Of a DNA stretch of 64,000 nt, positions 9,281 through 38,088 are shown in pieces. The stretch's first letter is position 1, and the number at the start of each line of letters is the position of its first letter. This DNA is from a virus: IMG/VR virus record IMGVR_UViG_3300024336_000001, positions 1-64,000 of that record; one strand, written 5' to 3'. The notes under the pieces were generated by a model. The model was not told the DNA's origin. It ran no database searches and worked only from the letters and a program-made list of their open reading frames with translations. Both the position numbers and the translations under genes were made by a program.

Positions 9281-9541
9281 TTAATACCGATATAGCTTCA
9301 TAGCTTCGTCATCACAAGGGACAAGATCTCTGATGACCTCTTTGGTTTTACACTTATCTCCATTCGTCATTACAAAAGAATACAGTTTTGTTGCAAGGTG
9401 ATAATAAATAGCCCAATCGTGCTTAATTCCCCTCACAGCAACCCACCTTACCGGATCTTTGTGTAATACTGGGTTTTGGGTGACACCTTTGGCAAAATCT
9501 AATTCAGGTTCCATAGCGTTTAATTTTTCAACCGTTAGCAT
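9281..9541 (-). CDS. Hypothetical protein
   Basis: 86-aa ORF overlapping the end of the rep-like gene. Confidence 0.55.
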   Translation of the reverse strand: MLTVEKLNAMEPELDFAKGVTQNPVLHKDPVRWVAVRGIKHDWAIYYHLATKLYSFVMTNGDKCKTKEVIRDLVPCDDEAMKLYRY

Positions 9542-10686
9542 AATACTGGCTCCCTTTCAGCTTCAACCGGGATCATTTTCTTTTCCAGTTGAGCATAAAT
9601 AAGGCTGTGGATTTCAGCTCTTATTGCTTTCTCAAAAATCCCCCTCGACTTATCCTCTCCATTTTTCCCACGCCTTTCAAATTCGCAAATAAAATTATTT
9701 TTCGAAACCGCTTGCACAGCAACACTCCTTAGCCTCGTATATTCTTCGTCAAATTCATCAAAAGCGTCTAATTTTTTTGATGCTAAATCTCGTATTTTTT
9801 GTTTCAACCCAACCTGTTTTTTCAGCGTTGCTTCCCGTGCCGTCTTTTCTCCTTGTGCTTTAGCTTTGTTTTCCATTTCCCGGATTTCTTCCTCGAGATA
9901 TTCCCAAGTATCGGCTTGTTCGTTATTGTGATAAATAAACTGAATCCAAGCTCCTTTCGACTTCTTTGGCTTTTGTCCTTCTACAGTCATCTTAAGCTCT
10001 ACATAGCGTTTTGATAATTTAGTTTTTAGATGGTCATTTTTCTTAATAATTTTTTTACTAAAAGACCCCACCCCTTTTTTTTCTGTTGGAGGTGTTTTTA
10101 ATGTTAAATTGGGTTTATTATACGTGCGCGCATGATCCCTGCTGTTTTCGCTACTTGATATTCGACAGGGGGTATGCTGATTTCCCTGTGTAATTTCGAC
10201 AGGGGGTATGCTGACGGTTATGCCTGGGGCCGACTGGGTGTCTTGGGTTTGATCTTCCTCGGCACTCTGCGGATAGGCTAGAGTCTGTCCATTAAATTCA
10301 ATTTTTGGACCTTCTGATTTTGGAGGATCTTTGGGGTATTCTTTGTCATCACGGTAGCCTTTAAAAATTGCTACGTTAAAAGTGTAGATGTTTTCCCCTC
10401 CCACCTCTCGCTCAATAGTTAAAAACCCTTTTTTCTCAAGCTCTTTTATAAACCTGTCTTTTTTGTATCTTGTAAGCCCGAATTCTTCCTTAATCTCACT
10501 GTTTTTAACTTTTAATTGGTTTCCATCTTGTTTTGTCAAAGCTATTTTTGAGCCTAACGCAACATAGAAATAGGCGATTTCCCAAGATAGTTTAGACTCT
10601 TTAACAAAAGAATGGATATCTTCCAGTTTGACGTAGTTGTTTTGTTTGCACTTTTGAACCATAATAAATACGGTTTTTAGAGACAA
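9535..10686 (-). CDS. Winged-helix replication initiator (lambda O/plasmid Rep-like)
   Basis: N-terminal wHTH (EIKEEFGLTRYKKDRFIKELEKKGFLTIER..GGENIY), low-complexity linker with DNA direct repeats, adjacent to parAB. Confidence 0.6.
   Translation of the reverse strand: MSLKTVFIMVQKCKQNNYVKLEDIHSFVKESKLSWEIAYFYVALGSKIALTKQDGNQLKVKNSEIKEEFGLTRYKKDRFIKELEKKGFLTIEREVGGENIYTFNVAIFKGYRDDKEYPKDPPKSEGPKIEFNGQTLAYPQSAEEDQTQDTQSAPGITVSIPPVEITQGNQHTPCRISSSENSRDHARTYNKPNLTLKTPPTEKKGVGSFSKKIIKKNDHLKTKLSKRYVELKMTVEGQKPKKSKGAWIQFIYHNNEQADTWEYLEEEIREMENKAKAQGEKTAREATLKKQVGLKQKIRDLASKKLDAFDEFDEEYTRLRSVAVQAVSKNNFICEFERRGKNGEDKSRGIFEKAIRAEIHSLIYAQLEKKMIPVEAEREPVLC
10161..10214. repeat. Iteron-like direct repeat inside the rep-like gene
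   Basis: TTCGACAGGGGGTATGCTGA at 10161-10180 and 10195-10214; the 34-bp period is out of frame. Confidence 0.7.
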
Positions 10687-10785
10687 TTCACCCCCGTTAC
10701 TATTGACAAAATTAAGAAATTCAATTAATCTTGAATATAGTAAATCGTTTTAAGCTTATAAAAGAGGACCAACTCAAAGCTTAGT

Positions 10786-10825
10786 AAAAAGACTCTATTA
10801 ATTACCAGTTAATAGAGTTTTTTTT
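10786..10825. terminator. Intrinsic terminator-like hairpin between parB and rep
   Basis: AAAAAGACTCTATTAA-TTACCAG-TTAATAGAGTTTTTTTT inverted repeat with A/T tails. Confidence 0.6.
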
Positions 10826-10945
10826 ATATATAAACACATGTCTCTCTCAAACCTGCCTCCTTTCAATTTTTATTTAGCCATTAATATGGCTCTTATATTC
10901 TCATATCTTGAAGATATAAGGCCCATATTAAGCAAAAACCCCGCT

Positions 10946-11794
10946 TTAGCGGGGCTTCCGTTCTTTCAGTTGTTTTCTAGCTCTAATTATAAAGTTCTCA
11001 CAGATTCCTATTTTACGCAAAACTTCATCTTCTGGTTCTTTATTATGTATCTTTAACTTTAAACCTACAGCGTTAGCCATTTCTTTTATGCCCTCACGGG
11101 TTTCATATTGTCTTTTTTTAGCAGAAACATCGTTGTTGTTTTCAGACGCTAATAAACCAGCAACATCTGTTTCTGGCATATCAATAAAACTCATAGTTTC
11201 TTTAAAGGTATATTCTTGTTCCCGTAAAAAAGCCTTTTTATCAAGGCTTAGGTTATTAATTTGACTTAGTTTTTTTATCCAAGATAAAGACCTGTGTATT
11301 TTCTTTGCCATTTTTTCTAAAGTAAGGCCGAGGTCTTTTTTTACTAATAAAACTGCTTCCGCAGTATCAATAGGGTGTAAATCTATTCTTTGAAGATTTT
11401 CATCAAGCTGTGCTAGAGATATTTCAACAGGATCTTCTGTATATTCAGTGACCCGGCCTTTAATTGTAGCGGCCCCAATCAACTTGTGTGCCCTATATCT
11501 ATTCTCTCCAAATTTTATAATATAACGATCTCTATCTGTAGGGTGTTTCATGACAGATATTGGTTGAGACAACCCTCTATCTTTTATAGATTCAGACATC
11601 TCCGATATTTTCTCTTCATTGAAGCTTGTGCGAACCTGTTTTCGAATTTCTATATTATCTAAAGGAATATCCAGCACAATAGAGTCTTTGTAGGTTAATA
11701 TCTTATACTCTCTGTCTTCAGCATCACTAGGAGAAGGAGATATTTTTTGCAAAGTCTTATCCATGTTTTTTGAAATTCTTTCTTTATTCTTCAT
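10946..11794 (-). CDS. parB: ParB/Spo0J partition protein
   Basis: QVR..F, GLSQPISV, GENRYRA arginine patch, ENLQRIDL and HTH. Confidence 0.9.
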   Translation of the reverse strand: MKNKERISKNMDKTLQKISPSPSDAEDREYKILTYKDSIVLDIPLDNIEIRKQVRTSFNEEKISEMSESIKDRGLSQPISVMKHPTDRDRYIIKFGENRYRAHKLIGAATIKGRVTEYTEDPVEISLAQLDENLQRIDLHPIDTAEAVLLVKKDLGLTLEKMAKKIHRSLSWIKKLSQINNLSLDKKAFLREQEYTFKETMSFIDMPETDVAGLLASENNNDVSAKKRQYETREGIKEMANAVGLKLKIHNKEPEDEVLRKIGICENFIIRARKQLKERKPR

Positions 11795-12645
11795 TTATTT
11801 GTTAACTCCAGAACCTTGTTGGCCAATTTAATATAATCTTTTGAGCCTTGGCAATTTGGTTTATAGTCAATAATTGCTTGTGCCTCACCATGTGCCTCGT
11901 CAAGAGATATGTTTTTTCTAATGGCGATGTCATCCCAAAATATATTTGGACAATTTAGCATCATTGACTCCCTGGCAGCGTTAGACGTGTTAACGTTGGT
12001 TTCAAAAAAAGTTAAGAAAACCCCTAAAACATCGGCTTCTGCGTTATAAAGTTTTTTACACTTACTCAAAGTCTTTAAAAGACTCTTAAGTCCGAGGAGG
12101 GCAAGTTTCTTTGCTTGTAAGGGCACAAGTAAATGCTGCGCCGCTATTAAGGAGTTGAAAAAAATAAGGCTCATAGAGGGCGGTGTGTCTAAAATAATAT
12201 ACCTGAATCTACTTAAATAATCGCTTTCACGGTCAAATATTTTTTTTAAAACAGATACTCTATGGCGATATGAGGCTAATTCTAAATTAACTTCTTCTAA
12301 AACTAAACCTGTGGGGATGATCTTTAATCGCTTTCTCGCTGTTGGCAAGACAAGTTCCTCTAACTTTTGCTTTTGCATAAAATCCATATCCACCAAGTTT
12401 TCGTTTACGGCTTGAATGAATTGATAAAACATAGTTTCTTTTCTATCTATCTCATCAGGGTCTTTGTCTGAAAAAACAGCAGTTGCATTACCTGAAGGAT
12501 CTAGGTCGCATAATAAGATATCTCCATCGACATCAGCAGAATAAATAGGATCTGAGAGGATGGCCGCTAAATTAATAGCCGTTGTGGATTTGCCCACACC
12601 GCCCTTTTGATTTGTAACTGCAATAATATCTGTTTTTCGAGCCAT
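11791..12645 (-). CDS. parA: ParA/Soj partition ATPase
   Basis: NQKGGVGKSTT deviant Walker A, DLDPSGNAT, IILDTPP. Confidence 0.95.
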   Translation of the reverse strand: MARKTDIIAVTNQKGGVGKSTTAINLAAILSDPIYSADVDGDILLCDLDPSGNATAVFSDKDPDEIDRKETMFYQFIQAVNENLVDMDFMQKQKLEELVLPTARKRLKIIPTGLVLEEVNLELASYRHRVSVLKKIFDRESDYLSRFRYIILDTPPSMSLIFFNSLIAAQHLLVPLQAKKLALLGLKSLLKTLSKCKKLYNAEADVLGVFLTFFETNVNTSNAARESMMLNCPNIFWDDIAIRKNISLDEAHGEAQAIIDYKPNCQGSKDYIKLANKVLELTNK

Positions 12646-12937: not shown

Positions 12938-13011
12938 GGAAAAGTACATCCGATGTACTTTTCCGATGGCGGCCAACGGGCTAAGACCAAAAGTACATCG
13001 GATGTACTTTT
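12938..13011. promoter_or_regulatory. Two copies of a 23-bp palindrome, parS candidate
   Basis: GGAAAAGTACATC-C-GATGTACTTTTCC (12938-12964) and AAAAGTACATC-G-GATGTACTTTT (12989-13011), upstream of the parAB operon. Confidence 0.7.
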
Positions 13012-13670
13012 TAAATTAACAGCTTTTTTATGGCGGGGTTGCTTGGCCCCATTAATGATAAGTCTGTTTCGACCGCAAACAGCAACCTAACCGCAGCATG
13101 GCTTAAGTGCTTATCTTGTTTGTCTCCTGCCAAATATGCCCAGATGTGGGTTTGGGCGTGGTTGATGTGATCGTTTGCAGAAATCAGCCTCCAGTTTTCT
13201 TCCGGGCCGTGTGACTTTGCACCTTTTTCTAAAACTTTAGCGCACTCAAGCATAGTCCTTGCCGGGTAATCGGACAGTGTGCCTCTTCGGGATATTTCTC
13301 TTTTTGTAAGATCGGACTTTGTGGTGAATTCTATATTAAGAACCCTGTCGGATAAACTTGCCTCTAAAGCAAATAAAATATACCCAGCCGCACAGTATAA
13401 AGAATATTCAGCCTCGTTACTGTCGCAGCCTTGCTGAATTATTAACAAAGCCGCTAAAGACTTATTTAAAAATGTATTTACAATCTCTTTTGATTTGTCT
13501 TCTATGTATTCCGATGGACAGGCCAGGACACGTATGTAGCTTTGTAGCGAGAGTAATGCTTTGGCTGGAAGCAGATCGCACCTATAAGGGATTGCGCTTT
13601 GAACCCCACCTTTTTTATTTGCATACAATTTTGTTTTGGGACTAAGCCCATCTAGTGCCTCTTTTATCAT
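13011..13670 (-). CDS. dATP/dGTP diphosphohydrolase-like protein (DUF5664 family)
   Basis: YRCDLLP; AKVLEKGAKSHGPEENWR; HAQTH; HLSHAAVRLLF. Confidence 0.7.
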   Translation of the reverse strand: MIKEALDGLSPKTKLYANKKGGVQSAIPYRCDLLPAKALLSLQSYIRVLACPSEYIEDKSKEIVNTFLNKSLAALLIIQQGCDSNEAEYSLYCAAGYILFALEASLSDRVLNIEFTTKSDLTKREISRRGTLSDYPARTMLECAKVLEKGAKSHGPEENWRLISANDHINHAQTHIWAYLAGDKQDKHLSHAAVRLLFAVETDLSLMGPSNPAIKKLLI

Positions 13671-16481: not shown

Positions 16482-16733
16482 AGCGGGTCCCTTTTAAATT
16501 CAACCATAAATATAATAAACATAATTTTGCAGCCCCTTTTCATATGCAAAAATAAATCCCAATAAAATAAACAAAATTCAATTTCTCTATATTTCCAAAA
16601 AACCATAAAAAAACAAAAAGGTCAATAGGTTTTACAATAATAATAAACAAGATATTTCAATGTTTATTAATTTTCATAAGTGGGAATATTATAGTATGAA
16701 GGTCGGTACGCCGATCAAGTTGACGCATGGGGG

Positions 16734-16759
16734 AAAAGTACGCTGTTTAGCGTACTTTT
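16734..16759. promoter_or_regulatory. Operator-like palindrome upstream of the XRE repressor
   Basis: AAAAGTACGCT-GTTT-AGCGTACTTTT. Confidence 0.6.
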
Positions 16760-16782
16760 AATACTAAATTGAGGCTGAGTTA

Positions 16783-17271
16783 ATGTGGTATAAAATACTT
16801 AAGGAATATATTAAAACGTCAAAAATGAGCCTTGTTCAATTTGCCGGGATACTTGGCATTTCTAAGCAATACCTAAGTGACATTCTCTCTGGTAGAAAAC
16901 CGCCACCAAATGCAGACACCATTATAAAAATCCTAGAATATTTTGAAAATAAGTTAGCATTATCACACGAAGAGGTTTATGTTTTTTTAGTAGCGGCCAT
17001 AAAAGAAAAAGCCCCGGAGAATATTAGGCGTTTGCTAAATGAGCTTGGAGCCAGGCTCCACCAAGAGATTGTTGTAAATGAGCAACTAACGAACGAGATA
17101 CAAAAAAGAGAATTGCACGAAGTTATTATTGGGCAATATACACATAGAATCTTGCAGGGAATATCTTTTATTGATGAGTCTGACAAGGCTTTGGTACTCA
17201 GGTTTATGGACTCACTTTTAAATCAACCGACAGATAGAATCGTTAAATTTCTGGAGTTGATAGAGCCATAA
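16783..17271 (+). CDS. XRE-family repressor 1
   Basis: MSLVQFAGILGISKQYLSDILSGRKPPP HTH; divergent from the leftward operon. Confidence 0.8.
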   Translation: MWYKILKEYIKTSKMSLVQFAGILGISKQYLSDILSGRKPPPNADTIIKILEYFENKLALSHEEVYVFLVAAIKEKAPENIRRLLNELGARLHQEIVVNEQLTNEIQKRELHEVIIGQYTHRILQGISFIDESDKALVLRFMDSLLNQPTDRIVKFLELIEP

Positions 17272-17519
17272 CATAGGGTTTTAAACGATTTGTTTAGGCA
17301 TAAAAAATAGCAAATTAGGCACGGAGTGACTGGCGACAGCTAACTGGCTTTTTGGGGCCTTATATATACATATACATATAAACCTATAAAAACAAAAAAT
17401 AATATAAAACAAAAAAATAGTTAAAAAAGCTAATATAAGGAATTAGCGGAGTGAAAACGCATAGTTTTTACATAATCTCGCAATAACAAACCCCCACACA
17501 AAAGGATTGAGCCTAAACC

Positions 17520-17896
17520 GGACATAATCCGTTTCACTTTGGACATAATCCGTAAAAAAGTGGACATTTTCCGTTAATAAGTGGCTATAATCCGTAGTGC
17601 TAAAAATAGCTAGGCACGAAATTGGACATAATCCGTAAATATAGCAAAAAACACCAAAAATAAATTTCAAACGAAAAAAATTTTGAAAAAATAAGACGCT
17701 GGAAAAACTTCACCATTATTATAAAGAAGCGAATACGCCAGAGATCATTATAGGAAAACAGCCAGAAAAACGGATTATGTCCGATTTACGCACGAAGTCT
17801 AAAGAAAACTACGCCTTATGCTCAGTTTTTAACGGATAATGTCCAGTAAAATGCGGAAAATGTCCAAAAAACAGCACCTAGATACGGAAAATGTCC
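17520..17896. repeat. Inverted double array of a 13-bp repeat (GGACATAATCCGT)
   Basis: Forward copies at 17520, 17541, 17562, 17583, 17624; reverse copies at 17770, 17811 (degenerate), 17832, 17853, 17884. Confidence 0.9.
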
Positions 17897-18488
17897 AAAT
17901 TAAATAATGAGGGAAAAATAGAAAGCCCGGCCAAGCATTGTGTTTTATGGCGATAGCAAAAAGCTTTGAAACCTTAGTGTTAAGGAGGGCAACCTTAACT
18001 ACCACAAATGCTTGGCGGGCCATTAGGGGGTAAAGGGACTCTACCCAACAATTCAAGCATACAGCAGGGCCAAGGAAAATGTCATTTTAGTTTTTGGTAT
18101 AGGTTACAGAATAACCTTACGCACAAAGATAGCGAATAAAGGCAATATGCAAAAGCACTCAAGCAATAACATTAAACAACTAAAGAAAATGCGCTGTGCG
18201 GCAAAATACAGGGGTGGTTTTTTGGCAAAAAAGACAGCAATTAGAAAATCAAAGAAAAGCCAAGGAAGATCTCCGGGGGAGGTCATTTTATTCCTGGAGG
18301 CTTTTAAAAGCAAGACGCCAGTTAAAAAATTGAAGTTCTGCGTGTGGTGTGGAGGCCCTGCCTTCCCTATGGGTTTGGTTTTTTTCGCTCGTGTAAACAC
18401 CCCACCCCCTTTATATATAATGATTTGAGCCTAAGCAACACAAAAACAAGTCGTTTTTACTTGCATAATTACCCCTAAAATCGTGCGT

Positions 18489-18518
18489 AATCTCGCATAA
18501 AGTATATTATGCGAGATT
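18489..18518. other. dif/loxP-like tyrosine recombinase site
   Basis: AATCTCGCATAA-AGTATA-TTATGCGAGATT: perfect 12-bp arms with a 6-bp spacer; closely resembles E. coli dif GGTGCGCATAA-TGTATA-TTATGTTAAAT. Confidence 0.8.
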
Positions 18519-18726
18519 GTAACGCCACTCATTAGGCACAATAAAAGGGTTATTATATCAATGAAAATAAATTGTATTATAGGGGCTGAACAAGCGCAAC
18601 CGCTCCACAAGCTCCCCGAGCCCCTGCCCACCAACCCCCAACACCAAGCAATATGTATAATAAAACCTATTATCTATACACAACACGCACAATATATATA
18701 CAAAACAGCCTTATTCTATACATATT

Positions 18727-18753
18727 CAGCTTATCGGGATTGCCGATAAGTTG
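18727..18753. terminator. Hairpin downstream of the leftward ORF6N operon
   Basis: CAGCTTATCGG-GATTG-CCGATAAGTTG; no clear U tail. Confidence 0.35.
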
Positions 18754-18811
18754 CTGATAGTAGTTGTATGGTATTTCCATATAACTGGTAGTAAATTAGG
18801 TAATCCCGAAT

Positions 18812-19183
18812 TTATTTATCTTTAGTGTGTTTGTCTATGCCAAGCAACAAGTAAGAAGTTTCAATATTATTATGGTATATATCACAATGGGCACAAAAAA
18901 GGTGCTTTACATCATTGCTATTATGGCTAGTCCTCCCACACACAAAGCACGTTATAGTTGAGTTATTATCATTAACAATATAGGTAGGTTGTTCACTATT
19001 GTATAGGTGGAATAGCATTTGTTTAATAGCCTCAATGTAGGCTTTTAGTTGCGCCATATCTAGCAATAAACGCCTAATAATGGCATATAATTCAGGTTGA
19101 CTTTCAGTTGACTTGAGCTTATCTACAGTCTCATGTAGTTGTGTTTCAAGCTCTTTGAGTTTACCGATATGCGACTGAATCAA
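18812..19183 (-). CDS. Hypothetical protein with coiled coil and Zn-finger-like C-terminus
   Basis: CFVC...FCAHC motifs. Confidence 0.55.
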   Translation of the reverse strand: MIQSHIGKLKELETQLHETVDKLKSTESQPELYAIIRRLLLDMAQLKAYIEAIKQMLFHLYNSEQPTYIVNDNNSTITCFVCGRTSHNSNDVKHLFCAHCDIYHNNIETSYLLLGIDKHTKDK

Positions 19184-19779
19184 TTAAGTTCTTTCATATT
19201 ATTATCAAGCATATCTGATTTTTTTAATACCGTATGTGTGTCTTGAAAGTCATCTAATATTTTAGAAAATCTGTGTACTTCTCTACTTAATTGAAGCGTT
19301 TTATCATTTGATAACTTGCTTTCTACTTTTTGGTTTGCGTCTATAGCTTCAACTTTAGATTCAATATATTTTAGCTTTTGTTTTAGTAATTCGTATTGAG
19401 GCTGCATATATATTTGTTTTCTTAGAGCCACGAATATTTTTATAATCTTGTGGTTAATTTCAATAGCAATTTTGCTGTTTAGCACACTTGATAAAGTCAG
19501 TATGCCGTATTCATTATATACATAAGGAAGGTATTTAATGTTTTTGCCTTGTTTCAAGATTCCATTTTGGCATCTTGAAAGTTGCTCAACTTCGGATGAG
19601 GTTAATTGAAAAACAAAGTCCCCTGGAAATCGGTCAATATTTCTTTTCATTGCCTTGTTTAAATTCCCTGTTTTTACGCCATATAATTGCGCTAAATCAG
19701 AGTCTAGCATGGTTTTAATGCCTCTAAACTCGTAAATTTTTGAAGCAATATTTTCGTGTTCTACTATTGTTAAATCCAT
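19180..19779 (-). CDS. ORF6N-domain DNA-binding protein (antirepressor-like)
   Basis: IYEFRGIKTMLDSDLAQLYGVKTGNLNKAMKRNIDRFPGDFVFQLT...PYVYNEYGILTLSSVLNS. Confidence 0.85.
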   Translation of the reverse strand: MDLTIVEHENIASKIYEFRGIKTMLDSDLAQLYGVKTGNLNKAMKRNIDRFPGDFVFQLTSSEVEQLSRCQNGILKQGKNIKYLPYVYNEYGILTLSSVLNSKIAIEINHKIIKIFVALRKQIYMQPQYELLKQKLKYIESKVEAIDANQKVESKLSNDKTLQLSREVHRFSKILDDFQDTHTVLKKSDMLDNNMKELN

Positions 19780-19795
19780 TGTTTTATATCCTTAT

Positions 19796-19826
19796 ATTTC
19801 AAGATTCCAAATTGGAATCTTGAAAT
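19796..19826. promoter_or_regulatory. Perfect 31-bp palindrome, with a second copy inside the ORF6N gene at 19552-19580
   Basis: ATTTCAAGATTCCAA-A-TTGGAATCTTGAAAT. Confidence 0.75.
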
Positions 19827-20026
19827 TAGCTTCCACGCTTTTTTACTATTTTTAACTCGTGCCCGAATTTATCTAAAATATTTTGTAGCTCGCTTACTTT
19901 TAAAGTGTTTTCCCTTAGCTTTGTTCCAAGGGTGTTTTTACTAAAGCCCATATCAAGGGAAATATCTTGCACCTTTTTACCGTGTTTATATATAAGCCCT
20001 ATTAGCTCATCCTTTGTATTTAACAT
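19826..20026 (-). CDS. Small Cro/XRE-like HTH protein
   Basis: DISLDMGFSKNTLGTKLRENTLKVSELQNILD. Confidence 0.7.
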   Translation of the reverse strand: MLNTKDELIGLIYKHGKKVQDISLDMGFSKNTLGTKLRENTLKVSELQNILDKFGHELKIVKKRGS

Positions 20027-20120
20027 ACTAAAAGTATATCAGTTATTAGAGAAAATCACAATAATTGAGTTGCCAGCACATATAAATAGATAGACAACAC
20101 AAGATACCGATGATTAACAC

Positions 20121-20149
20121 TTGACACAGAAGATGAAACGCTGTAAACT
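20121..20149 (+). promoter_or_regulatory. Sigma70-type promoter of the early operon
   Basis: TTGACA-17 bp-TAAACT. Confidence 0.75.
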
Positions 20150-20155
20150 GTGGTT

Positions 20156-20523
20156 ATAGCGTTGAGAAAGCGCAGGGATGGCCAGCCCTCAGCACTATAG
20201 AAAAAGTAAAAAATTAATTGATCTTTGAAAATTTGGAAAAATAAAAGCGGTGTGGGAATGACACCTATTAAATAGAAGGTTTAGCACACTGGAAATTTAA
20301 GACACGAAACGGCTTTTTTCTATTGAATGATAATCAATAGTTTATTAACAGAGAGCAGAAAAAGCGGATAAGGATTAGGCACAAGTAAGGTTTAATCAAT
20401 CGGGCTTATTAAGATGCTGAGGCATAAAAAACACTGGCAATCTTGATGCTTAATCCTTAGACGATACCGAACAAAAATCATTAACAAACAGTTTAAAAAC
20501 TAAATTGTTTTTTAATGGTTTTT
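20156..20523 (+). ncRNA. Candidate structured leader/ncRNA with a boxA-like element
   Basis: No sizeable ORF; several stems (20156-20199, 20249-20265, 20369-20459, 20473-20523); TTGATCTTTGAAAA at 20218-20231. Confidence 0.5.
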
Positions 20524-20557
20524 AGCCATTAATTAAATAACAAATGGAGGGCATTAA

Positions 20558-20929
20558 ATGAATAAAGAATTTTTAAATGATATAGAGGGGAGCTTTAAAA
20601 AACAATTTCCCAACTCATATATTGAAACTTGGCATAGCAAAAGATTTAGCGAAACATACAATATACATTTTTCATTAGGTAAGGACAAAACGGAATATTC
20701 ACACGGAATATTTGAAAACGATCCAATGGCACATAAATTACTTGTGTTTTTTCAGGACAACGAAAACAAACCGCTTTCTTTAGAGTCTGGCGGTGGGCTT
20801 TCTGATAAAAATTACAAAACGCTAACAAGAATCAGAAAAAAACAAGGCACGGAAGAGCAGATTTTAAAACACCTTGATAAATATTTTATTGAATTAAAAA
20901 GGTTGGTTATTGAGAACAATATTAAATAA
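20558..20929 (+). CDS. Hypothetical early protein
   Basis: First ORF after the leader; GGAGG RBS. Confidence 0.65.
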   Translation: MNKEFLNDIEGSFKKQFPNSYIETWHSKRFSETYNIHFSLGKDKTEYSHGIFENDPMAHKLLVFFQDNENKPLSLESGGGLSDKNYKTLTRIRKKQGTEEQILKHLDKYFIELKRLVIENNIK

Positions 20930-36062: not shown

Positions 36063-36329
36063 ATGAATAATGAATTTGGAATCAGCGATCTTCAAATAAA
36101 ACTAATGGCAAATAAGCTGGGGTATCCAGGAGGGCTATCTGAGCAGGAATTAGCGGATATTAAGGTGGGGCTTATTGGAGAAATATTCAAAAAAAGGGAA
36201 GAGCTAGTATACCCTGTTATTAAATATGCCCTTGAGCTAAGGCTTAAGAAAAATAAAGGTGTAGTTCGTACAAGATGTTGTGAAAAAGATGCTGCGAAAA
36301 TAAGGTGCTGTGATAAGAATGAAGACTAA
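36063..36329 (+). CDS. Hypothetical protein
   Basis: GGGAG RBS. Confidence 0.5.
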   Translation: MNNEFGISDLQIKLMANKLGYPGGLSEQELADIKVGLIGEIFKKREELVYPVIKYALELRLKKNKGVVRTRCCEKDAAKIRCCDKNED

Positions 36330-36636
36330 GTATCTTAAAGATATCCTCACAAGGATGTGCAGGCATCCTAAAAAATATCCATTAACAAACAGGTCTTCGG
36401 TTACAAATGCCCAAAGACTAGAAATAATTAAGGGGGTTTTCGATGAAATGATAGAATGTTTATTAGAGGGGTGTAATTTTGAAATAAAGAATTTTGGGAC
36501 AATAAAACGGAAAGAAAGACCAGGGAGAACTTATAGGAACCCCAAAACAGGTGATAAAATTAAAAAGGATCCGGCAACAACATTGAAGTTTAATATAGCA
36601 AAAAAGATGAGAGACAGGCTAAATGAGCAATCCTGA
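36319..36636 (+). CDS. HU/IHF-family DNA-bending protein
   Basis: FEIKNFGTIKRKERPGRTYRNPKTGDKI...LKF; likely start MKTK. Confidence 0.85.
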   Translation: MKTKYLKDILTRMCRHPKKYPLTNRSSVTNAQRLEIIKGVFDEMIECLLEGCNFEIKNFGTIKRKERPGRTYRNPKTGDKIKKDPATTLKFNIAKKMRDRLNEQS

Positions 36637-36641
36637 ATATA

Positions 36642-36911
36642 ATGAGCCAAAGCAAGGAAATAAGTTCAAAGAGGGAAATGATGGGAGAAATGGATCAAAA
36701 AAGGATTATGAAAAAACTCGGAAGTAAAATTACTACTTTAAAGAAAAAGGAAGGGTTAGTTACTGAGGAATTAGCAAAGAAAATAGACGTAGCAAGAAGT
36801 ACCTTATGGTGTATTGAGACGGGAAAAGTAGACCCTAAAATGAGCACAGTAGTAAAGATAGCAAAGTTTTTTGGTATGAGCATTTCGGAATTATTAGATT
36901 TTAATAAATAG
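36642..36911 (+). CDS. XRE HTH regulator
   Basis: EELAKKIDVARSTLWCIETGKVDPKMSTVVKIAKFFG. Confidence 0.8.
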   Translation: MSQSKEISSKREMMGEMDQKRIMKKLGSKITTLKKKEGLVTEELAKKIDVARSTLWCIETGKVDPKMSTVVKIAKFFGMSISELLDFNK

Positions 36912-36938: not shown

Positions 36939-37001
36939 AATCTCGCATAAATAAATATATATACATTGACAAATACACTAATTATGCATTATTATGCGAG
37001 A
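36939..37001 (+). promoter_or_regulatory. Recombinase promoter flanked by dif-like half-sites
   Basis: AATCTCGCATAA (36939-36950), TTGACA (36966), TATTAT (36990), TTATGCGAGA (36992-37001). Confidence 0.7.
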
Positions 37002-37017
37002 AACAAGGAGGTTTAAA

Positions 37018-38088
37018 TTGAATACTGAATTAAAATTACATAATGATATAGAAACAAGGATTGAAAAGTTACCTGAACACTATAAAAAGTTTTTTATATG
37101 GAAGCAGCCAAACAAATCTACAAGACGACATACGATCAAATCATATTTATTGCATTTGAATAAAGTAGAAGATCTATTAGGGAAAAAGTTGATGGAGAAA
37201 AAGGGGGCAGCATATGTTTCTGTAACCAAAGATGAGTTGGTTCAACTAAAAGACACTCTATCACATAAGCTTAACCATAAACCTTCAAGCGTGAATGCTT
37301 ATTTAGCTTCAATAAAATCTATTTTCAAATATTGGACACAAGAGTTGGAGATTGTAGAAAAATCCCCTATCCCGCTGGACTTTCAAGAAGAAGAACCATA
37401 CGCAGAGAAGGAAATGTATATTACTGAAGAACATTTAAGGGAAATAAATAATATATTAGATGAGCTGGTTAAGACAGTTACAACTAAAATACCGGCCAGC
37501 ATGAATGTCACAAGCCTTTTCTTCCATGCTTTACAACGCAAGGCAATTATTAGGTTAATGATTGATACAGGGGCTAGAGTTGGGGAAATTGCTGGAATTA
37601 CTGCAAATGATTTTGACAGATACGAAATTATGATAGACAAGAGAAAGCACAAACAATGGCAAGTGAAAATATATAATTCTAAAAAACGAGATGGATCTCC
37701 CTTAGCTCGCTGGCTACCTATATCAAAAGAAACAAAAAAAGCAGTGGATGAAATGCTTTATCATGCTCAATTAAAAATAAAAAACGGGGAACTGCCTTTA
37801 TCAACTGCAAACTTTAGTAAAGCCTTTCATAGAAAAAATAGATCTAGGGCAATTCAAACTTGGATTAACGAGATACAAAAAGACCTTAATAAAATGGGGT
37901 ACAATATCCCGAAGCTGACACCCCATCATTTTAGACATCTGTTTGCTACCAGACTAATTCTGGCAGGCGAAAACGATGCAACCGTACAGAAAATGTTAGG
38001 GCAAAAAAACATTCAAAGTATAATCAGGTATGTTAAAGCCAGCAACCAAATGGCTGGAGCTGCCAGCTATAGAACCTTTGGTTTTTAA
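37018..38088 (+). CDS. Tyrosine recombinase (Xer/Cre-like resolvase)
   Basis: TGARVGE, HHFRH, LGQ..I..IIRY; N-terminal SAM-like domain; likely TTG start at 37018 after AAGGAGG. Confidence 0.9.
   Translation: MNTELKLHNDIETRIEKLPEHYKKFFIWKQPNKSTRRHTIKSYLLHLNKVEDLLGKKLMEKKGAAYVSVTKDELVQLKDTLSHKLNHKPSSVNAYLASIKSIFKYWTQELEIVEKSPIPLDFQEEEPYAEKEMYITEEHLREINNILDELVKTVTTKIPASMNVTSLFFHALQRKAIIRLMIDTGARVGEIAGITANDFDRYEIMIDKRKHKQWQVKIYNSKKRDGSPLARWLPISKETKKAVDEMLYHAQLKIKNGELPLSTANFSKAFHRKNRSRAIQTWINEIQKDLNKMGYNIPKLTPHHFRHLFATRLILAGENDATVQKMLGQKNIQSIIRYVKASNQMAGAASYRTFGF

Follow-up and report, generated by a model that had tools for sequence, protein, structure and literature searches.

A symmetric candidate crossover site and orphan promoter half-sites of a Xer-like recombinase in an uncultured marine phage with plasmid-type genes

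Phage P1 is a phage-plasmid with a single recombinase, Cre, that acts at a 13-8-13 site, loxP, adjoining cre. The single-Xer systems XerH, XerA, and XerS are chromosomal and located at the terminus, and XerS and XerH are controlled by FtsK. TnpI of Tn4430 resolves transposition cointegrates. The TnpI site, IRS, contains extra recombinase-binding motifs outside the core, which are bound by additional subunits (PMC2847244). In many published proteobacterial dif sites the core of the XerC arm is TCGCATAA (PMC2731167). For gp02 of the Bacillus phage-plasmid vB_BtS_B83 (B83), a 'multimer resolving' role was inferred by the authors, and the passages of that paper on the recombinase and on multimer resolution name no site (PMC6669507).

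Here we analyze a locus that resembles each of these systems in part. It lies in a complete 88,849-bp IMG/VR virus record, of which the first 64 kb constitute the window (the whole 64,000-nt stretch of DNA analyzed), and it comprises a palindrome and, 18.5 kb away, a gene for a Xer-like tyrosine recombinase whose promoter is bracketed by copies of the palindrome arm. We propose that the phage's own recombinase probably uses the palindrome as its crossover site, resolving dimers in the manner of Cre/loxP, and that the same enzyme represses its own gene; binding, catalysis, dimer resolution, and self-repression are all functions that we infer from sequence comparison and a predicted structure. 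What the proposal offers for testing is an enzyme of 356 aa together with a symmetric 30-bp site (6-bp spacer); both come from an uncultured marine phage that is likely a phage-plasmid.

The core site, the promoter half-sites, and the recombinase

The features of the site and of the recombinase locus are as follows.

18489-18518, no strand assigned: core site, AATCTCGCATAA-AGTATA-TTATGCGAGATT, the only perfect 12-6-12 palindrome in the genome
18489-18500: left arm of the core site
18501-18506: spacer of the core site, AGTATA
18507-18518: right arm of the core site
17474-17485, plus strand: degenerate half-site AATCTCGCAATA (AATCTCGCA followed by AATA), doubtful
36310-36636, plus strand: gene for an HU-like DNA-bending protein (Pfam Bac_DNA_binding), directly upstream of the recombinase promoter
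36642-36911, plus strand: XRE-type HTH gene (Pfam HTH_3), directly upstream of the recombinase promoter
36939-36950, plus strand: orphan half-site, identical to the left arm, ending 15 bp short of the −35 hexamer
36966-36995, plus strand: sigma-70-type promoter, TTGACA-18-TATTAT, 11/12 matches
36992-37003, minus strand: orphan half-site, TTATGCGAGA plus AA, inverted, 10/12, overlapping the −10 hexamer and the likely transcription start
37018-38088, plus strand: gene for P0001, a Xer-like tyrosine recombinase of 356 aa, with a TTG start 6 nt after AAGGAGG (37005-37011)

The core site was read directly, at exactly the positions at which a preliminary description of this DNA had placed a symmetric dif-like site; its arms are perfect 12-bp inverted repeats, its 6-bp spacer is non-palindromic, and the whole record contains one full site per genome. 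The arm 12-mer is present in three copies in the 88,849-bp record (the two core arms and 36939-36950), where composition predicts 0.02, and the arm 10-mer is present in four copies, where 0.2 are expected. That description had also claimed that copies of the left arm (36939-36950) and of TTATGCGAGA (36992-37001) bracket a TTGACA/TATTAT promoter of the recombinase. We find both copies and the promoter as claimed, the promoter being a strong one with 18-bp spacing. The centres of the two orphan half-sites are 53 bp apart, corresponding to approximately five helical turns, and the joint chance that the 100 bp before the sole recombinase gene would hold a copy of the 12-mer together with one of the 10-mer is ~6e-9. 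The partial arm at 17474, which the same description had counted, adds nothing, inasmuch as its 9-mer, AATCTCGCA, is expected 0.66 times per genome; this copy may be a chance match or a decayed half-site. No further half-sites were found within about 1 kb of 18489-18518, and accessory motifs adjoining the core, the distinguishing feature of TnpI/IRS, are absent at the core site. Because accessory sites are absent beside the core, no mechanism that would bias the reaction to resolution over fusion is evident. The HU-like protein and the XRE-type HTH protein are possible cofactors or rival binders. A reading of the palindrome as a terminator was rejected, the palindrome being followed by no T-run.

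P0001 matches the tyrosine-recombinase profile PF00589 at 65 bits, versus a cut-off of 27.1 bits (67.4 bits in the genome search), and a profile search gives a weak SAM-like N-domain. Scores against NCBIfam equivalogs are 71 versus a cut-off of 335 bits for XerC (TIGR02224), 68 versus 330 bits for XerD (TIGR02225), 68 versus 220 bits for XerA (NF040815), and 48 versus 267 bits for XerS (NF003462), the last with an alignment along the full profile length. Because all four scores are far under the cut-offs, we classify P0001 as Xer-like and as an orthologue of none of the four. The AlphaFold model (pLDDT 83.7) has two domains and no lambda-type arm-binding domain; its best Foldseek matches are XerA (5hxy; E 4e-10) and XerH-difH (5jjv; TM 0.60), followed by Tn1549 Int, IntI4, and Cre. 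P0001 is the sole PF00589 match in the complete 88.8-kb genome, and no serine recombinase (PF00239) was found there. The preliminary description had proposed a single-subunit Xer-like enzyme, and one tyrosine recombinase, no serine recombinase, and a fold nearest to XerA and XerH support this. A TTG at 37018 is most likely the start codon, in place of an ATG at 36994, because the N-terminal length that it gives equals that of the nearest homologue (P0003; 41% identical).

The catalytic positions of P0001 are R187, K222, H303, R306, Q329 (the His/Trp-III position), and Y338. The replacement of the usual LGH by LGQ, noted in the preliminary description, holds on alignment, in which Q329 falls at the conserved His of Tn1549 Int. 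The same position is H, W, or Q in the small family of P0001, and N in a clade of phage enzymes typified by that of contig L036 (see below). Since relatives vary at this position, and since the L036 clade, with N, keeps a conserved site, Q329 is probably tolerated, its amide side chain being accepted, although a Q at this position might lower activity. The family is rare, with 11 clusters at E <1e-10 among 1.8 billion representatives. Searches of viral and metagenome contigs with P0001, with the homologues P0003, P0004, and P0005, and with an alignment gave no usable relatives, and megablast and tblastn searches of annotated phages and plasmids gave distant matches alone (22-32% identity).

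Genomic setting of the core site

The record was taken as a circular assembly because of its 127-bp terminal repeat, and several studies have yielded seawater and marine metagenome runs that contain near-identical DNA. Besides the large terminase, the phage encodes a block of maintenance genes of plasmid type, and an array of iterons precedes the core site.

9535-12645, minus strand: maintenance-gene block of plasmid type (Rep-like, ParB, ParA)
9535-10686, minus strand: Rep-like initiator gene (PHROG replication initiation families)
10946-11794, minus strand: ParB gene (Pfam ParB_N/HTH_ParB)
11791-12645, minus strand: ParA gene (Pfam AAA_31/CbiA/ParA)
17520-17896, no strand assigned: iteron array, GGACATAATCCGT, ~5 forward and ~5 reverse copies

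Given its genes for ParA, ParB, and a Rep-like protein, the phage likely lives as a plasmid prophage, a state read from gene content. The core site and the iterons share a 1.5-kb gene-free stretch (17272-18811) between convergent gene ends. The GGACATAATCCGT iterons are mirror-symmetric around an A-rich centre and are spaced at 21 bp or multiples thereof; the array is probably the origin at which the Rep-like gene product (9535-10686) acts, for the plasmid or the phage. Both gene orientation and cumulative GC skew change over in the core-site region, where the skew has an origin-like minimum and not a terminus. One metagenome contig from another study spans the core site uninterrupted (18301-19141), and mapping of contigs, the only material mapped, placed neither a joint nor a loose end at the spacer. 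A loose end at 18569, 51 bp past the core site, was not read as a junction.

Several other features of this genome were recorded. Three perfect palindromes with AAAAGTAC arms are present, two directly upstream of parA (12938-12964 and 12989-13011) and a third (16734-16759) upstream of an HTH gene (16783-17271), and are likely a par operator or centromere. The gene-free region also has a long nested hairpin at 17922-18024 (RNA fold −37 kcal/mol, z −1.84), which could represent an origin structure or encode a small regulatory RNA; an Rfam search of 16500-20700 gave no match. C-rich tracts, CACCCCACCCCC and CCCACCAACCCCCAACACC, lie ~75-130 bp to either side of the core site (18394-18415 and 18600-18650), and the motif TTGAGCCTAA is repeated, at 17507 and at 18425. 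A 219-aa protein (13011-13670) has a dATP/dGTP diphosphohydrolase N-terminal domain (PF18909), a possible sign of a modified base or of manipulation of the nucleotide pool. In three marine runs, contigs lead from 21818 through 29 other letters to 34318; depth at this joint is ~6-11 (~11 in two runs) versus ~5 for the phage, and a variant or relative without the 12.5-kb block that carries the signalling cassette may be circulating. As regards the host, a protein atlas search returned mixed phyla. A search with the primase-MCM protein as query found no relatives of the phage.

Related sites in other phages and elements

A scan of IMG/VR for TCGCATAA-N6-TTATGCGA yielded 34 loci, in nine of which ACTTCGCATAA-N6-TTATGCGAAAT is located 60-140 bp upstream of a gene for a Xer-like recombinase of ~293 aa. 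The nine loci form approximately three clades (L036, L047, L048, L054, L041, and L039; L057 and L032; L053), and in all nine contigs the 160 bp that precede the start codon hold four half-sites and no more. Two of these are the core arms, another lies 22 bp beyond them at the promoter, and the last is located at −25 to −35, just before the ribosome-binding site (RBS). Elsewhere in the nine loci there are almost no half-sites. The contigs are low in GC and, by CheckV, represent about one third of phages of ~125 kb, with the site internal. P0001 and the L036-type enzyme share 24% identity (E 5e-10), and relatives of the latter in annotated phages include those of the Bacillus phage-plasmids B83 and BMBtp14, which have the same layout as the nine contigs with different arms.

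L036, 7517-7643: unit of four half-sites upstream of a ~293-aa Xer-like gene, whose enzyme has LGN at the His-III position
B83 (L062), 2343-2371: palindrome ATTGCGTGTAA-TTTATA-TTACACGCTAT, 11-6-11, overlapping the TATAAT of XerC/D-like gp02; equivalent in L063
B83 (L062), 2448-2459: extra half-site ATTGCGTGTAAT, just before the RBS; equivalent in L063

At the level of sequence, these comparisons show that the half-site travels with phage Xer-like genes, that half-sites at the recombinase's own promoter are a family trait, and that, from L036-type phages to B83 and BMBtp14, the arms change as the enzyme changes, as would be expected of covariation between enzyme and site. Because the half-site recurs beside Xer-like genes in other phages, it is very probably the recognition element of P0001. 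The promoter half-sites in the present genome are head-to-head with a 41-bp gap; those of the relatives are in inverted and then direct order, a difference that weighs against the proposed reading. In the present genome the crossover site would appear to have moved 18.5 kb from the gene, to a place beside the iterons, with two half-sites having stayed at the promoter.

The arms of the core site also occur with other spacers.

L005, 3408-3437: identical 13-bp arms, spacer TACCTA, in an unrelated phage fragment
L007, 340-369: identical 13-bp arms, spacer TACCTA, in an unrelated phage fragment
L016, 6359-6388: nearly identical arms, spacer ATATCA, in a contig of an Atopostipes MAG

Each of the three sites lies in non-coding DNA beside iteron-like repeats. 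No recombinase is visible in the three pieces; the two phage fragments (L005 and L007, ~50% GC) are 20-29% complete, and the L016 genome has ordinary XerC/D-type genes elsewhere. The L016 site came from a scan of genome contigs for the palindrome, in which it was the only one of eight matches with full arms; the other seven look like chance hairpins, with differing flanks, and were set aside. We read the three sites as probable further members, with spacers that would keep the elements from recombining with one another. Identical arms in unrelated elements are compatible with a shared type of enzyme and also with a host factor. In G005, a relative of L005, the palindrome is absent and other repeats are found at the equivalent place. 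A separate palindrome with one mismatch, AGAGCCAGAGGC-GTGATT-GCTTCTGGCTCT (12-6-12; G005:C1, 8025-8054), follows a truncated tyrosine recombinase ORF at a distance of ~70 bp; it could be a terminator or belong to a further recombinase/site pair.

Proposed function and comparison with known systems

According to the reading that we favour, one P0001 monomer would bind each 12-bp arm, two occupied sites, in a genome dimer or in two copies, would pair into a homotetramer, and strand exchange would take place across AGTATA, with the asymmetry of the spacer setting direction. Because the monomeric genome has a single full site, the reaction would occur solely between copies and would not rearrange the monomer. 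Plasmid-prophage dimers would be converted to monomers, so that ParAB could segregate them, and incoming DNA could also be circularised, as with P1 Cre/loxP. At its own gene, P0001 would bind the two orphan half-sites on the same helix face, one over the −10 element and start and the other upstream of the −35 element, and would block RNA polymerase, resulting in repression. The HU-like protein (36310-36636) might, speculatively, act as a helper by bending the DNA.

Three other readings of the palindrome bear on this proposal. The palindrome could be an attP core through which the phage integrates at a host site, such as the host dif or another site with the same spacer, with ParAB and Rep serving a transient or alternative plasmid state. 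Integrase activity is possible for Xer-like enzymes, the site resembles dif (PMC2731167), and IMG/VR labels some L036-type records provirus; however, in those related 'provirus' records the site is intact and internal, and hence is not split into attL and attR there. The presence of ParA, ParB, and Rep, the perfect symmetry of the arms, the lack of arm-type sites, and the lack of an arm-binding domain in the model all argue against an attP, as does, weakly and from contigs alone, the uninterrupted passage of contigs across the site, with the spacer free of joints and loose ends. Moreover, the occurrence of the same arms with the spacers AGTATA, TACCTA, and ATATCA is not what one conserved attB would lead one to expect, and we consider integration unlikely. 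Another possibility is that the palindrome is a dif/cer-like plasmid site for host Xer proteins and that the phage enzyme performs another task or assists. A hand count gives 21/28 positions matching the Pseudomonas aeruginosa dif entry, the TCGCATAA core and the near-TGTATA spacer match proteobacterial dif sites (PMC2731167), and identical arms occur in unrelated elements with no recombinase in the available fragments, although those fragments are only 20-29% complete. Against host Xer, both arms appear to be XerC-type (CG after TTATG) and neither appears to be XerD-type (TTAAAT), half-sites are present also on the phage recombinase's own promoter, and nine other phages place half-sites directly upstream of phage-encoded Xer-like genes; we regard host Xer as the acting enzyme as quite improbable.

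The remaining reading invokes no recombination and takes the palindrome and half-sites as binding sites, operators or a centromere, of some other DNA-binding protein, for instance ParB or the XRE-type HTH protein. A distance of 28 bp separates the end of the XRE-type HTH gene from the first half-site, and palindromes are typical of operators and of parS sites; nevertheless, the half-sites are 6 bp apart in one place and 41 bp apart in the other, which is unsuited to a rigid dimeric HTH protein. The linkage of half-site and recombinase recurs in phages with different neighbour genes, and the B83 site covaries with its recombinase. The AAAAGTAC palindromes upstream of parA (12938-13011) and at 16734 are better candidates for parS or a par operator, and we rejected the core site as parS for this reason. 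Use of the palindrome and half-sites purely by such a protein is thus very improbable, and a crossover site for the phage's own recombinase remains the reading that we prefer.

More tentatively, the locus could represent a broad, undescribed group of Xer-like systems of phages and phage-plasmids, with TCGCATAA or covarying arms and with half-sites that double as operators, in which the present phage would have placed its crossover site by the origin and would use its orphan half-sites purely as a self-repression switch. If such a group exists, the L005, L007, and L016 sites, with like arms and other spacers, would amount to a naturally occurring series of lox-like sites incompatible with one another, and several new orthogonal pairs of recombinase and site would become available from the group. 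The layout of a core plus promoter half-sites recurs across several phage lineages, including B83 and BMBtp14, and is of use for annotation of phage-plasmids, for the question of how phage-plasmids stay monomeric, and possibly for orthogonal lox-like tools. The finding leaves the understanding of such systems unchanged.

Compared with P1 Cre/loxP, the system likewise belongs to a tailed phage with plasmid-type partition genes and one tyrosine recombinase without an arm-binding domain, it likewise has one site per genome with perfect inverted arms and an asymmetric spacer, and the role expected is the same, dimer resolution and possibly cyclisation. It differs from Cre/loxP in geometry (12-6-12 versus 13-8-13), in its enzyme, which is Xer-like and 11-13% identical to Cre in structural alignments (3crx and 1crx among the matches), in the distance between site and gene (18.5 kb, whereas loxP lies beside cre), and in the orphan half-sites that bracket the recombinase promoter. 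Like XerH/difH (5jjv, 5jk0), XerA/dif (5hxy), and XerS/difSL, it pairs one enzyme with one near-palindromic site, and like these sites it has a 6-bp spacer and ..ATAA/TTAT.. inner arms; unlike these sites, which are located at the terminus, the present site is at an origin-like point of a phage genome.

With dif, the core site shares ..CATAA/TTATG.. inner arms, the 11/12-6-11/12 geometry of Xer sites, and a spacer, AGTATA, that is one base from TGTATA (PMC2731167); with the plasmid Xer sites cer and psi, it shares the multimer-resolution role proposed here. Unlike dif, cer, and psi, it has two TTATGCGAG.. arms of XerC type (TTATG then CG) and no XerD arm of TTATGTTAAAT type. Because both arms are XerC-type, a canonical XerC/XerD pair would be without a proper substrate, and the symmetric arms would fit a homotetramer of one enzyme. 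Unlike cer and psi, the site belongs to an element that encodes its own recombinase, and no 180-bp accessory region of the cer/psi type was recognised at the site. The L036, L057, and L053 clades and B83 resemble TnpI/IRS (IR1-IR2 and DR1-DR2) in packing accessory half-sites by the core, whereas in the present genome 18 kb separate the accessory half-sites from the core; at that distance they would not filter synapsis topologically, and a purely operator role is more likely. B83 and BMBtp14 gp02 provide a phage-plasmid parallel, a Xer-like enzyme with a palindrome-plus-half-site system, but their arms are TTGCGTGTAA, their core adjoins the gene, and the match of P0001 to the B83 enzyme is limited to residues 175-338 (32% identity). 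Taken together, the locus is most likely a module of the familiar Cre/loxP and single-Xer kind, such as one would expect a phage-plasmid to carry, in which the division between a crossover site at one place and operator half-sites at another is mildly unusual.
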